47,221 nt of DNA from a virus (Duplodnaviria; Heunggongvirae; Uroviricota; Caudoviricetes): IMG/VR virus record IMGVR_UViG_2660238524_000005; one strand, given 5' to 3'. Positions within the stretch are counted from its first letter, which is position 1. The number at the start of each line of letters is the position of its first letter. Below the pieces are notes generated by a model, which ran no database searches, was not told where the DNA came from, and worked only from the letters and a program-made list of their open reading frames with translations. The position numbers and the translations under genes are program-made. Shown piece by piece: positions 1 to 47,221 of this stretch.

Positions 1-249
1 ATGGCGGCAGCACAACCGCTGGTATTTGATGCAGAACTGGACACCGTGCGTGGGCGTCTTGGTAGCGTAAAAGGCGTTAATTACGATACGGCGATGTGGA
101 GTTCGGCAATTAACAGCCGCAACAACGTGACCACTGATGCAGGCGCTGGCTTTGAGCAAACATTGACGGGGCTAACGCTTGGTATCGACAGCCGTTTCTC
201 CCGTGAAGAAAGCAGCACAACTCAGGCGGGTGTGGTCTGGACGTTCTGA
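1..249 (+). CDS. Autotransporter-like outer-membrane beta-barrel protein, C-terminal fragment (5' end outside window)
   Basis: ORF runs from window edge; C-terminus ...QAGVVWTF ends in aromatic residue with alternating hydrophobic pattern typical of autotransporter barrels; host flank outside the prophage. Confidence 0.4.
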   Translation: MAAAQPLVFDAELDTVRGRLGSVKGVNYDTAMWSSAINSRNNVTTDAGAGFEQTLTGLTLGIDSRFSREESSTTQAGVVWTF

Positions 250-350: not shown

Positions 351-396
351 TGGTCGGCACGAGAGGATTTGAACCTCCGACCCCCGACACCCCATG
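351..396 (-). tRNA. Partial tRNA-Pro(GGG) (proL-like): 3'-terminal 46 nt from anticodon loop to CCA; phage attachment-site core, not an intact tRNA
   Basis: Reverse complement reads CATGGGGTGTCGGGGGTCGGAGGTTCAAATCCTCTCGTGCCGACCA, matching the 3' half of enterobacterial tRNA-Pro as I recall it; upstream 30 nt cannot form acceptor or D arm (would need CGGCACG at the 5' end). Confidence 0.65.
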
Positions 397-611
397 TCAC
401 CGCGCCTGAAACGCTGGAGACCGCGCCATTGCTGGGCTGGCAGGGTGTTTCACTGTGTGCGCAAACAGTGCATAATTCGCAAAATTCACGCTATATACAT
501 CAATGAGTTAAGAGAGATTTTTCCCCACTCCTAAATGGTCAGTTTTTGGAGCATTACTATATTAATAGGTTCCGTCTATAGCACTTTTTGATTTGCTTCT
601 AATATGCTTTT

Positions 612-638
612 CTGTGGATAAGATTTAGTTATCCACAG
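612..638. promoter_or_regulatory. Perfect inverted pair of consensus DnaA boxes (TGTGGATAA-N7-TTATCCACA)
   Basis: CTGTGGATAAgatttagTTATCCACAG; both 9-mers equal the DnaA box consensus TTATCCACA; about 200 bp upstream of the ORF at 835. Confidence 0.45.
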
Positions 639-834
639 ACTTATCTCCTAAGTTTCCGAGCAGCTACATGTTTTTTGTTGATTGTTTTATGTTTGGCGTA
701 AAGTCAACAATTACTTCGCTTTTTGACCATTTTAGCCCATTGGAAATTACGATCATCTTCATGTAACCTTCTAAAACTTACTAAGATTGCAGAAGTTAAA
801 GCAACATAGCTCGTAGTTTCTTAAAGGTGATTTA

Positions 835-1602
835 ATGCCACAGCCGGCGCTAAAAGCGAACGAAATCAGCAGTGAATTAATCGATATTCTTGCGGCTCGG
901 AATACGATATCCGAAATGCAATATTTTCGTTATATCAGAGATATAGAAAAGTTGCGCGACAGCGCATCTGAGGACTATCTCAAAGCGTTGGCTAATGGTG
1001 CTTTTGGGCGTAAAGATACTGCAGTTGCATTCTTTGAAGAAGCATTGAAGCATAACAACCTGATCATTGCTCAAAATTATGTAGTTTATCTCAACGATTA
1101 CGGCAGCTTCCGTGAAGTTGAACAAGTGGTAAATCGATTAGTTGAACGTTATAACTCCCCTACGATGCTGTCCCATGCATGGGAAGCTAACTTGTTCTTG
1201 GGGCGTATTGACAAAGCGCTCTACTATGCTGAGAGATTGATAAGTATGGTAGATGAAAAGGAGGCTGAATTGGTTAAGCACCTCGCAGCCACAGCACTGG
1301 CCCAATCCACGACCTTCAAAAGTGCAACTGGAATTACTGATGAAGAACTACAGGATATTGCAAACCGCATAGTGGATATCATGGCTGACCATAAAGTTAG
1401 TCCTGTTGCTATGTCTTTCTGCTCTATCCCTGAAGAGCGTACGTCATCATATGTCATGGCAGTTAATACTGAAGATTCTGATGTTCTCTCTGATATGAAC
1501 TTGGATATAGCATTTTCTCTTGCAGAAAATGAAAGTTTGATTGGAAAACCCTTCAGCGTATGGTTTGAAGGGCGTTTGGAGGAACCTGCGCGTGCCAGTT
1601 AA
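835..1602 (+). CDS. Hypothetical protein, first gene of AT-rich two-gene cargo operon
   Basis: 255-aa ORF, SD AAAGGTGA 5 nt upstream of ATG; protein-like composition; no family recognised. Confidence 0.6.
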   Translation: MPQPALKANEISSELIDILAARNTISEMQYFRYIRDIEKLRDSASEDYLKALANGAFGRKDTAVAFFEEALKHNNLIIAQNYVVYLNDYGSFREVEQVVNRLVERYNSPTMLSHAWEANLFLGRIDKALYYAERLISMVDEKEAELVKHLAATALAQSTTFKSATGITDEELQDIANRIVDIMADHKVSPVAMSFCSIPEERTSSYVMAVNTEDSDVLSDMNLDIAFSLAENESLIGKPFSVWFEGRLEEPARAS

Positions 1603-1975
1603 TAGTTCCGATTTTATCGCTTTCGCAAAAGATTGTGAAAAGCGTAACGACGAAATTGGTTACAGAAACGCTGTCGCACGTGCGTATTATGGTGCTTATC
1701 ACCACGTACTTCCGTGTTTGACCATGGGGCCGAAAGAAAGTCACCAAGGCCTCATTGACTATCTTGTTAACGATGCTTGGAAGGGTAACGAACCTTTTGA
1801 AAAAAGAGACTTAATTGGTTTGGGGTATGCTCTTCAATCGCTTAAGGATCAGAGAATAGTTTGTGATTACAGACTTAACGACACTATTACGCCAACCCAA
1901 TCAAGCACCGCGATTAAGACTGCAGAGAAATTAATCCAGCGTTGCGCTAATATGACCAAGTCTAAAGCGTCCTAA
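1594..1975 (+). CDS. Small hypothetical protein with R-x6-H motif (HEPN-like?), translationally coupled to upstream gene
   Basis: GTG start with SD GGAGG 7 nt upstream, overlapping the stop of the 835-1602 ORF; motif RAYYGAYH; ORF track gives 1541..1975 from an upstream TTG. Confidence 0.5.
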
Positions 1976-2008: not shown

Positions 2009-2034
2009 ATTATGCATTGTATTTAATTTCACCG

Positions 2035-2400
2035 TGCGGAAGCATTACCCAATCATATGGTTCCGCGTATAAATTTTCGTTGATTTCGCGTCGCTGTGGG
2101 CTATGAGCCCTTGTGGTCTACTCCCTGTTTATCAAACAAAATGCAGCTAGTGCGCGTATTTTGTGGAATGTGGGGGCGCAGCTCCATCGTCAAATTATTA
2201 CACAAGCCTAACGAATCACGGGGCAATGAAAAGTATGGCTAAGATAGGCAGGTGCGGATACCTCTTTACTGCGTTTGTTATTACGCTCGGTATACGGTGA
2301 ACGATATACGGGCAGGCAACGTTATCGCGACTGTTATCAATAATACGTTTCAGTTTGTCCTCGAACTACATCACAACCGGCTTGAAAACTAATTACTGGA
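2035..2400 (-). pseudogene. Degraded remnant of a tyrosine-integrase 3' region (paralogous to the intact int at 3553-4737)
   Basis: Nucleotide blocks align by eye with int 3608-3920 (e.g. GTATAAATTTT..GATTTCGC.TCGCT.TG and CCTCTTTACTGCGTTT); minus-strand translation gives ...KLKRIIDNSRDNVACPYIVHRIP then loses frame; no ORF of 60 aa or more. Confidence 0.55.
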
Positions 2401-2458
2401 TTTTGTGCCTCCATAATCATATGATTTAAAATGTTATTTTATAAAAAAGGAGTTGTAT

Positions 2459-3415
2459 ATGACCAATTTGTATAAGTTTATGGGAGCGGATATAATTGAT
2501 AAATTGATGATGGATGAAACACATATAGGAATAAAATTCTCTCATTTACATGAATATAATGATCCCTATGAGTTTTTCCTTACTATTGATTTTAATCGCG
2601 GTTCTGATGAGTTAGCATTTTACAATGAAATGATTGGCATGGTTACAAAACAACCAGCAACTTGTTTTACGAAAAGCCCTGTGATACCACCTATGTGGGC
2701 ACATTATGCAGGTAATTCTTCTGGTTTTGTAATAGAGATTAATGAGGAGAAGTTTAAAAAGTATTTGGATGAAATCGGCTTCCAGGATCATAGTTCAATA
2801 GCAGATGTTGAATATAAAGATTCTCCAGATACAGGTATTGAAGACATTCTGGCGAGAGCATTTCATATCTGTAAACCTCGTTATATCTACTGGCTACAAT
2901 CCTGTATAATGACAGCCGCATATTTGACAAAACAAACTTGCTGGAGTTATGAGCAGGAACGTCGCGTAATAATTAATGAGAAAGCACTTACTAAACTGAA
3001 TGACAATCTTATGCTCCTTCCGGTACCGATTAATTGTATAACTGGAGTTATAGTTGGGCACAAATCAAATGATTTATTAAAGCAGAAAATTCAATCTTTA
3101 GCTAAAAAGGCTAAATGTAGATATTTCGAAATGGTAATAGGAAAAACAACAACTACACCATTTCTTTTATCTCAAAATCTCAAATCACACCAATTTATTA
3201 ATGGCAATATAATACCTGCATCAAGGCAATGTAAAAAATGTTATGAGCCTTTAAACATGGAAAATAAAGTTTGTGGCTGGTGTGGAATTACTAATCATGA
3301 TGTGAAAATGGCAGAGTACCGTAATTCATTTCGAATGATAGCCAACTATGGTGGGCTGGATAAATATATATCATCCATGAATAAGATTACTGAAGAGTAT
3401 AATAAGGGTAAATAA
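2459..3415 (+). CDS. DUF2971-family protein with C-terminal CxxC...CxxC zinc-ribbon-like motif
   Basis: LYKF...NDPYEF and PPMWAHYAGNSSGFVIEI motifs characteristic of DUF2971 (from memory); CKKCYEP...CGWCG near C-terminus; SD AGGAG 6 nt before ATG 2459; strongly AT-rich. Confidence 0.65.
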   Translation: MTNLYKFMGADIIDKLMMDETHIGIKFSHLHEYNDPYEFFLTIDFNRGSDELAFYNEMIGMVTKQPATCFTKSPVIPPMWAHYAGNSSGFVIEINEEKFKKYLDEIGFQDHSSIADVEYKDSPDTGIEDILARAFHICKPRYIYWLQSCIMTAAYLTKQTCWSYEQERRVIINEKALTKLNDNLMLLPVPINCITGVIVGHKSNDLLKQKIQSLAKKAKCRYFEMVIGKTTTTPFLLSQNLKSHQFINGNIIPASRQCKKCYEPLNMENKVCGWCGITNHDVKMAEYRNSFRMIANYGGLDKYISSMNKITEEYNKGK

Positions 3416-46018: not shown

Positions 46019-47221
46019 TTAGGCTTGTACCAACGCTTCTGTTTCTGTGAGTGAAATCTGATAGCGTTTTACTGCCTCAGCAAAGGCGTGCGCGGCATCT
46101 GCATTTGATACCATATATTCTTCAGTTACCCCTGTTTGAGAATGGAAAGTAATATTTCCATAAATGCAAATAGGGATTTGGTAGTTGTCTTTAAAACGAC
46201 GGTCTGGTGAGCCATTCTTATTCGTTTTCGCCCATGTATAACCATCTATGCGTGAGTCACTGGGAACACCTTCTTCCTCATGGAATCTTAGATATTCTGA
46301 ACTAATTTGTAATTCGCGTAAATCAATCAGAGCGAATGCTCCATCGGCTCGTGGTATGACTGCAACTCCAGGATAAAGCAAAATATCGTCTCCATTTGCA
46401 TTTTCAAACCTCATCGCACGCCCTGTAAATTGAATGAGATCCGTTGAACTAAAATCAAAGGTAACTGGGTGACGATTAACAGACCGGGTTGCTAATGTTC
46501 TTTCAGCAAACTGGTCTGTAGCTTTATCTGCAGTAATATCCCATTTTTTGACACTCGATTTTAACATATCAAATGCATGGACCATCGCTGCATATGCGCG
46601 CTGTGAAGCATCACTGCTCTCGAATGTTATGGCTATTTTTGTGCTGTCTTCCCATGAAACTAGGCGAGATATCTCAGCTTGGGTTAGGGGGAGTAGTGTC
46701 TCAAGTTCTGCGATGCGTCGTTTGTAAAACCAACGGAATAGACTTGATTTGCGTCGAGCCAGCTCGCTTTTTTGTTTTGATTCTTCGGCAAGAGCCTCTT
46801 GAAGATCTGCTTTTATCTCTGCTCTTTGTTCTCGTGCTTTAGCAATCAAATCTCGTAAAGGTAAAAGGGAGGTACTTGTAAGGACTTCTACCGAAGCGCT
46901 GGATATTTCATTCATGCCAGCTACAGGCATATATATTTTAGCGTTCGATGGTGTGTTTTCTGGAGATGACCCAGACCCCAAATGAGGTTCTGTAGGGGCT
47001 GGATTTAATGGATTGGTAACTGAGTATCCATCATCATAGGGCAAGGTAGGTGTAGTATAAGATAAGCCTGTGCCCGGTAATCCGACAGTTGCTCTAACCC
47101 CTTTTTTACCAACATTGACAGTTGCGCCAGGCATGCCAATGCTTGCACTTATTCCACGCTTGCCAATGTTGAGTCGAACGCCAGGAAATAAAGTAAAGGT
47201 TTGTCTGAAACGAAGAGACAT
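46019..47221 (-). CDS. DUF4236-domain protein (N-terminal Gly/Lys-rich repeat domain + about 340-aa unknown C-terminal domain); start at window edge
   Basis: N-terminus MSLRFRQTFTLFPGVRLNIGKRGISASIGMPGATVNVGKKGVRATVGLPGTGLSY matches DUF4236 (from memory); ATG is the last codon of the window, so the true start may lie outside. Confidence 0.5.
   Translation of the reverse strand: MSLRFRQTFTLFPGVRLNIGKRGISASIGMPGATVNVGKKGVRATVGLPGTGLSYTTPTLPYDDGYSVTNPLNPAPTEPHLGSGSSPENTPSNAKIYMPVAGMNEISSASVEVLTSTSLLPLRDLIAKAREQRAEIKADLQEALAEESKQKSELARRKSSLFRWFYKRRIAELETLLPLTQAEISRLVSWEDSTKIAITFESSDASQRAYAAMVHAFDMLKSSVKKWDITADKATDQFAERTLATRSVNRHPVTFDFSSTDLIQFTGRAMRFENANGDDILLYPGVAVIPRADGAFALIDLRELQISSEYLRFHEEEGVPSDSRIDGYTWAKTNKNGSPDRRFKDNYQIPICIYGNITFHSQTGVTEEYMVSNADAAHAFAEAVKRYQISLTETEALVQA

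Follow-up and report, generated by a model that had tools for sequence, protein, structure and literature searches.

An inverted pair of DnaA boxes as a candidate upstream operator of a mobile TPR–HEPN prophage module in the Enterobacterales

Why should a perfect inverted pair of DnaA boxes stand in front of a two-gene cargo operon at the edge of a prophage? The window (the whole stretch of DNA that was analysed, 47,221 nucleotides) is Escherichia coli chromosome starting at the proL junction of a lambdoid prophage. The original prediction, made from the letters of this DNA alone, proposed that the pair could be a DnaA-regulated promoter or operator, a DnaA titration site, part of an origin, or the operator of an unrelated dimeric regulator. 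Positions 611–639 of the window read tcTGTGGATAAgatttagTTATCCACAga and resolve into the following elements.

611–639, no strand: perfect inverted repeat TCTGTGGATAA-N7-TTATCCACAGA, an exact match that is kept in 18 loci
613–621, minus strand: left box TGTGGATAA, an exact TTATCCACA
629–637, plus strand: right box TTATCCACA, exact

The predicted inverted pair of perfect DnaA boxes is real, both 9-mers being exact copies of TTATCCACA, and the paired pattern is absent from shuffled sequence. Its symmetry is perfect, as had been claimed, but the arms, given as 10 bp, are 11 bp long (611–621 and 629–639, with 7 bp between them), one base more on each side. From the start of the left box to the ATG at 835 is 222 bp, and the DNA is AT-rich, which agrees with the predicted position about 200 bp upstream of that ORF. 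The proposed search for the same palindrome elsewhere was run on the window and found the pattern to be unique there: the 25-bp pattern occurs once at up to two mismatches and in 0 of 100 dinucleotide-preserving shuffles. There are three exact copies of TTATCCACA in the 47 kb, and two of them belong to the palindrome. Both arms conform to the R-type DnaA box, TT(A/T)TNCACA. On these figures the palindrome is judged to be non-random.

The position of the pair near a prophage end raises the possibility of a role in integration. In an O25b:H4 genome with an identical region, the gene order is narP, an autotransporter pseudogene (window 1–249), a tRNA-Pro fragment, two hypothetical genes, a recombinase pseudogene, a DUF2971 gene, a tyrosine integrase with a lambda-type arm-binding domain and a small excisionase-like gene. 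The full upstream region was found in 54 of 5,426 complete E. coli genomes. The junction has one composite feature.

354–527, minus strand: prophage attachment junction, consisting of the 3' 45 nt of proL (354–398) and the attP arm (399–527)

The window holds only these 3' 45 nt of proL (minus strand), and ARAGORN calls no tRNA; intact proL forms the far end of the prophage, adjoining yejM (L195, 7222–7298). With a fragment at this end and the intact gene at the other, 354–398 is thus the core of the prophage junction. In the APEC O78 equivalent (L003, 4952–5029) of window 354–431 (minus strand), RefSeq annotates a tRNA-Pro. The 128 bp at 399–527 are common to other proL-integrating elements (APEC O78 and the phages Eeyore and Flotzy) and in phage Eeyore directly adjoin the 3' end of the integrase gene; this segment is the attP arm. 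Similarity to the other proL elements ends near 527, before the palindrome, which therefore lies outside the attachment site. A function as attP arm or integrase site was rejected, since the shared arm ends at about 527 and the pair follows the cargo module to a second prophage position, the gap between the antiterminator gene Q and the lysis genes. The pair is also present with a different integrase type (L169) and, in Yersinia and Hafnia, away from any integrase.

A C-terminal integrase remnant (2010–2360, minus strand) lies between the cargo module and the DUF2971 gene (2453–3415), a neighbour that matches the PADLOC candidate PDC-S31. The gap between att and int seems to have gained cargo in layers, and in APEC O78 (L003) it holds different genes. 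The last ORF of the window (46019–47221, DUF4236) is offset by about 1.4 kb from its collinear position in the best-matching genome, NZ_CP015085.1, so that the prophage in the window must differ from that genome by an indel somewhere in its body.

The cargo module has three parts.

835–1602, plus strand: cargo gene 1, 255 aa, with a TPR domain and a small alpha/beta C-terminal domain (domain match and structure model)
1592–1975, plus strand: cargo gene 2, 127 aa, HEPN/UPF0332 family, overlapping gene 1
1981–2008, no strand: terminator, a 13-bp perfect hairpin with an A-run and a T-run (AAAATTGGCCTCA/TGAGGCCAATTTT)

The HEPN/UPF0332 gene always accompanies the TPR gene, and the hairpin at 1981–2008 is a predicted bidirectional terminator that closes the module; the sole Rfam match, a sub-threshold chance match, fell on this terminator. 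No DNA-binding domain was recognisable in the structure model of the TPR protein (pLDDT 92), PADLOC matched neither module protein, tblastn found no match to the module in sequenced phages or plasmids, and the interval 528–834 held no conserved small ORF of at least 40 aa. The module occupies two prophage positions, the att–int gap and the Q–lysis gap, and we class it as a self-contained prophage moron with a promoter predicted from alignment.

Whether the palindrome belongs to this module was examined by comparison with relatives. Homologues of the TPR protein at 37–93% identity were located in Brenneria, Lonsdalea, Citrobacter amalonaticus, C. koseri, Klebsiella variicola, K. michiganensis, Enterobacter sp. 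R4-368, E. wuhouensis, Pseudocitrobacter and several metagenomic contigs. Nearly all of these loci are flanked by a proL-type core on one side and an integrase on the other, the integrase being of another type in one clade (L169, L197 and L204). Through homologues of the HEPN partner, prophages of Yersinia and Hafnia were added, in which the two genes stand between antiterminator Q and the lysis genes. A scan of species-representative genomes added only three further loci. The pair is kept in 18 loci of about 10 genera, including the Q–lysis positions of Yersinia and Hafnia; upstream of the module it is missing in Mixta and Serratia, and Lonsdalea has a decayed copy. The versions found are as follows.

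TGTGGATAA-N7-TTATCCACA: E. coli, C. koseri, E. wuhouensis and L025
TGTGGGTAA-N7-TTATCCACA: Brenneria, C. amalonaticus, Klebsiella, L170 and L196
TGTGGGTAA-N7-TTATACACA: second C. amalonaticus copy
TGTTAATAA-N7-TTATTAACA: Pseudocitrobacter
TGTGTATAA-N7-TTGTCAACA: Enterobacter R4-368
TGTTGATAA-N8-TTAT(G/A)AACA: L169, L197 and L204
TGTCGATAA-N7-TTATCAACA: Yersinia
TGTTGATAA-N7-TTATCAACA: Hafnia

In mean pairwise identity among 13 lineages, the arms reach 87%, the spacer 45% and the 30-bp flanks 38–41%. The spacer is fixed in length at 7 bp, or 8 bp in one clade, and in one diverged E. coli copy the arms are intact and two of the seven spacer positions are substituted. The distance from the pair to the start codon is 218–246 bp, apart from L170 (167 bp), where the called start looks misplaced. 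This retention of the arms across lineages whose spacers and flanks have diverged indicates that the element is under selection and is part of the module's own control region. From its distribution, it belongs to that region and not to att, int or any particular phage backbone. With its conserved arms, fixed spacing and changes that are in some cases symmetric in both arms (e.g. TGTTAATAA/TTATTAACA), the pair behaves like a protein-binding site.

Alignment of 13 upstream regions, with spacings measured across the 18 loci, placed the pair in a control region of about 270 bp, roughly 60–85 bp inside the left boundary of the module. The further conserved features of this region are listed here with their window coordinates.

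581–590, plus strand: conserved block 1, GCACTTTTTG, from the alignment
641–649, plus strand: degenerate third box TTATCTCCT, in direct orientation, 3 bp after the right arm
676–684, plus strand: conserved block TGTTGATTG, which in Klebsiella reads TGTTGATAA, a one-mismatch box
703–715, no strand: remnant of a second palindrome, GTCAA-N3-TTGAC, from the alignment
740–769, plus strand: predicted sigma-70-type promoter, TTGGAA (740–745), an 18-bp spacer and TAACCT (764–769, preceded by TG)
783–805, plus strand: conserved AAGATTGC ... AAAGCAAC in the predicted 5' untranslated region, from the alignment

The spacing of these blocks is rigid. Wherever block 1 is present it starts 32–34 bp ahead of the left box, and the GTCAA block starts 89–91 bp after the left box. 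The third box begins with an invariant TT followed by two nearly invariant bases (TTRT); distant lineages carry a full box at this position (TTATGCACA, TTATACACA, TTATCAACA or TTATTAACA). TGTTGAT forms the conserved block between the pair region and the second palindrome in the 13-region alignment. The second palindrome, which lies about 67 bp before the predicted transcription start, is intact in most genera (L157, L158, L162, L164, L165, L168 and L170) and broken in E. coli and C. koseri, with E. coli keeping the GTCAA half only. It may be the site of a second regulator that has been lost in this lineage.

Downstream, the arrangement TTGGAA-18-TA(nnn)T with a preceding TG is the only promoter-like arrangement common to all lineages. 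In the promoter alignment (13 loci) the TGG and TGTA..CT positions are invariant, and the –10 element keeps TAnnnT in every locus examined, the E. coli version, TAACCT, being weak. The block TGTAACCT is conserved after TTGGAA and before AAGATTGC ... AAAGCAAC and the ribosome-binding site. The segments AAGATTGC and AAAGCAAC could form a short hairpin; both are invariant, leaving no covariation by which such pairing might be tested. A sigma-54 promoter was also considered and did not fit in a by-eye comparison with the consensus, which is a weak test. From this alignment we infer a transcription start near 776, which would put the pair at about –150. The distance from the pair to TGTAnnnT is 147–150 bp in 13 loci (12 lineages) and 158–159 bp in the other 5, the longer class being one helical turn more. 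A distance that is either fixed or longer by one helical turn suggests a phase-dependent complex between a bound protein and the promoter region. The option of a promoter or operator element for the cargo operon is thus strongly supported, by the persistence of the pair across genera and by its fixed distances to other blocks of the control region.

Which protein would bind such an operator is a separate matter, and the evidence points in two directions. In favour of DnaA, 16 control regions contain 18 strict TTATNCACA matches, compared with 0.28 expected from shuffles; 15 of the 16 lineages have one or more strict boxes (Hafnia has none). Five of these 18 are found at various places outside the pair, with one more at –110 in Yersinia. 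Lineages with off-consensus pairs have a strict box (TTATGCACA or TTATACACA) 2–3 bp past the right arm, and a 3-bp spacing of boxes matches that of DARS boxes II–III and of the box pairs of phage T5. All four bases are found at position 5, the free N of the consensus. Of 30 half-sites, 21 have C, 8 have A and one has G at position 6, and 24 have T and 6 have C at position 4. The half-sites of the proL clade, despite unrelated spacers, have C at position 6 throughout and, with a single exception, at position 5, so that they are constrained no less strictly than the DnaA consensus requires. In consensus and footprinting work on DnaA, C6 and T4 are important for binding, which is weakened by the off-consensus bases A or G at position 6 and C at position 4. 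Against DnaA, the deep-branching versions (Yersinia, Hafnia, L169, L197, L204, Pseudocitrobacter and Enterobacter R4-368) have A or G at position 6, and their half-sites TTATCAACA, TTATTAACA, TTATGAACA and TTATCGACA fall outside TT(A/T)TNCACA, as does the left arm TTACCCACA (C at position 4) of many lineages.

Viral sequences were also searched. The exact N7 pair is present in 35 viral contigs, where by our own rough estimate about one would be expected, and many of these pairs lie within clusters of further DnaA boxes. In six unrelated environmental phage contigs (L010, L036, L039, L005, L007 and L034) the pair sits amid at least four additional boxes; such clusters may be origins or DnaA-binding control regions. 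The 7-bp spacing was rejected as a general rule for DnaA box pairs, being seen in only 2 of 89 sampled head-to-head pairs of perfect boxes, which is a point against DnaA. The type-B palindrome was found in 17 viral contigs, most of them very AT-rich and chance-like and one a box cluster, and none of the 17 adds an enterobacterial context. A literature search on TTATCAACA gave nothing useful besides a preprint on phage T5 (bioRxiv 10.1101/866236).

The variable half-sites are what an operator for some other dimeric protein, of host or unrecognised origin, would explain, with a half-site TTATn(C/A)ACA, halves 16 bp apart from centre to centre, and the DnaA-box match of E. coli as a by-product of similar half-sites. 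Every lineage retains a core TGT...TAA-N7-TT.T..ACA around varying positions 4–6; Hafnia (TGTTGATAA/TTATCAACA) and Pseudocitrobacter (TGTTAATAA/TTATTAACA) make perfect palindromes out of half-sites that are not DnaA boxes; and a fixed 7-bp spacer between strictly symmetric halves is what dimeric regulators typically show, but not DnaA pairs generally. We nevertheless consider this explanation a possible but rather unlikely one. The strictness of the proL clade at position 6 equals or exceeds that of the DnaA consensus, and a dimer bound to the palindrome does not account for the extra single strict boxes that recur elsewhere in the control regions. The proteins of the module lack a DNA-binding fold. 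The sites of CRP, Fur, LexA, IHF, HipB, TyrR, NrdR and UvrY did not fit when consensus sequences were compared by eye (again a weak test), and we know of no characterised enterobacterial regulator with this site.

An inverted repeat might also act in RNA, here as a stabilizing or processing hairpin in a long 5' leader of a plus-strand transcript that starts upstream of 611. The predicted hairpin is stable (–15.2 kcal/mol, z = –5.5, in E. coli; –16.6 kcal/mol in Hafnia), the frequent A-to-G change in the left arm preserves a G-U pair on the plus strand only, and consensus-like promoters lie upstream in E. coli (536–563), Brenneria and Lonsdalea, although these candidates are not conserved among lineages. 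Pairing is retained in 96.6% of cells across 13 sequences, three of them changed on both sides, a count that symmetric changes in a DNA palindrome would equally produce and that cannot separate a hairpin from a DNA site. In Enterobacter R4-368 the hairpin collapses to –3 kcal/mol, no better than shuffles, and the broken pairs fall at stem positions 4 and 5, that is at box positions 6 and 5, as recognition of half-sites predicts. The third direct box and the additional single boxes would also be left without explanation, and we regard a transcript hairpin as very unlikely. An intrinsic terminator was rejected: the scan was negative, 4 of the 11 pairs of the stem are GC, and neither strand has a T/U-run after the stem. 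Still more improbable, in our view, is that the DnaA-bound pair marks off the 5' edge of the module as a roadblock or insulator in both directions, keeping out transcription from the adjoining DNA instead of regulating the promoter of the module. The pair is far from the promoter and only about 60–85 bp inside the left boundary, and Schaefer and Messer are said to have found at asnC that box-bound DnaA blocks RNA polymerase in one orientation, in which case an inverted pair would block it from both directions. An insulator would not, however, need a promoter distance held to 3 bp or one helical turn; the window already has a terminator upstream at 311–342; and at the Q–lysis position antiterminated polymerase would probably read through.

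We therefore return to the reading of the palindrome as a conserved upstream operator of the mobile module, probably bound by DnaA, to which we assign a probability of about 0.5. The operator would be centred about 150 bp 5' of the predicted module promoter within a rigidly spaced array of blocks, and the phase-dependent complex might repress the promoter, activate it from upstream or act through a DNA loop. Among possible binders host DnaA comes first: the E. coli arms are perfect boxes of the R type and would be of high affinity, and the third box of distant lineages lies 3 bp past the right arm, as is typical of boxes in cooperative DnaA arrays. The module would in that case be expressed according to how much DnaA the cell has or to the nucleotide state of the protein. 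A more specific and decidedly doubtful extension is that the TPR and HEPN proteins, with a possible toxin or defence role, form a portable module that senses the status of the host replication initiator by means of three DnaA boxes bound in phase some 150 bp before its promoter, so that its expression would be gated by the level or ATP/ADP state of DnaA. A less likely variant is that the array of boxes itself disturbs the pool of host DnaA, by titration or in a DARS-like way; the exact copy of DARS1 boxes I–II in the Yersinia version hints at this.

If DnaA does bind, the locus would illustrate clearly how horizontally mobile prophage cargo can be tied to the replication initiator of its host, with the expression of a HEPN-type module linked to the replication state of the cell via a phase-locked operator. 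If the binder is another protein, the element defines a regulator site that is conserved across the Enterobacterales, with half-site variants common to the element and to the still unexplained injection-stop region of phage T5.

Among known systems, the origin and titration proposals of the original prediction find little footing. A replication origin (oriC, plasmid or phage ori) was rejected, as was any part in one: E. coli has only the two boxes, there are no replication genes or other origin-like features nearby, and the pair travels with the cargo module. Beyond the pair no box with one mismatch or fewer occurs before 4535, and the only nearby repeats are terminator hairpins. A datA-type locus, with four or five boxes and an IHF site, was likewise rejected; E. 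coli has two boxes and its relatives at most 3–5 box-like 9-mers, and no IHF site could be fitted by eye against the consensus. Titration as the main role fits poorly with two to three boxes and with an architecture that differs from that of DARS.

DnaA-box operators are known at non-origin E. coli promoters, those of dnaA, nrdAB, mioC, rpoH and uvrB, where DnaA represses or activates. These are the closest in kind, with one to a few R-type boxes (TTATNCACA) near a promoter. They lie within or just upstream of the core promoter, whereas the module pair is about 150 bp upstream, inverted and with a 7-bp gap; unlike them it resides in a mobile prophage module, and its binding by DnaA is a prediction from sequence.

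In DARS, boxes I and II are inverted and 5 bp apart with their ACA ends facing, and box III is direct (PMC6868365). DARS1 of K-12 reads TTATCCACT-attcc-TGTGGATAA-cca-TGTGTATTA, with box III 3 bp after box II. DARS1 and DARS2 thus share with the module the three-box core of an inverted pair and a direct neighbour 3 bp away; in the module, however, the TTAT ends face each other across 7 bp and the direct box is on the other side. Identity with DARS was rejected on this opposite polarity and on the spacing of 7 bp rather than 5 bp. The Yersinia loci (L173 and L174, at about 2116–2139) do contain TTATCCACT-N5-TGTGGATAA, identical to boxes I–II of DARS1 in sequence and spacing, with the second box falling exactly on the –35-like element of the promoter; in Hafnia the first box alone is kept.

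A further parallel is the injection-stop region of phage T5, whose DnaA boxes have a function that is only hypothesized (bioRxiv 10.1101/866236). There (L214, 9440–9520) the boxes form the direct pairs TGGGGATAA-gtc-TGTTGATAA and TGTTGATAA-gtc-TGTGGATAA, non-origin boxes in a phage genome in which the consensus and the variants TTATCAACA/TTATTAACA stand 3 bp apart, as in the distant versions of the module. The T5 boxes differ in being direct pairs inside long inverted repeats of a non-coding region.

Finally, the module resembles the morons of lambdoid prophages, units of a promoter, one or more genes and a terminator set between conserved phage genes, in having its own control region and terminator and in occupying the two classical moron positions, but the promoter of a typical moron is less elaborate than this rigidly spaced, multi-site control region of 270 bp. 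A box-type operator in the control region of a promoter is a known kind of element; mobile prophage cargo is an unusual place for it.
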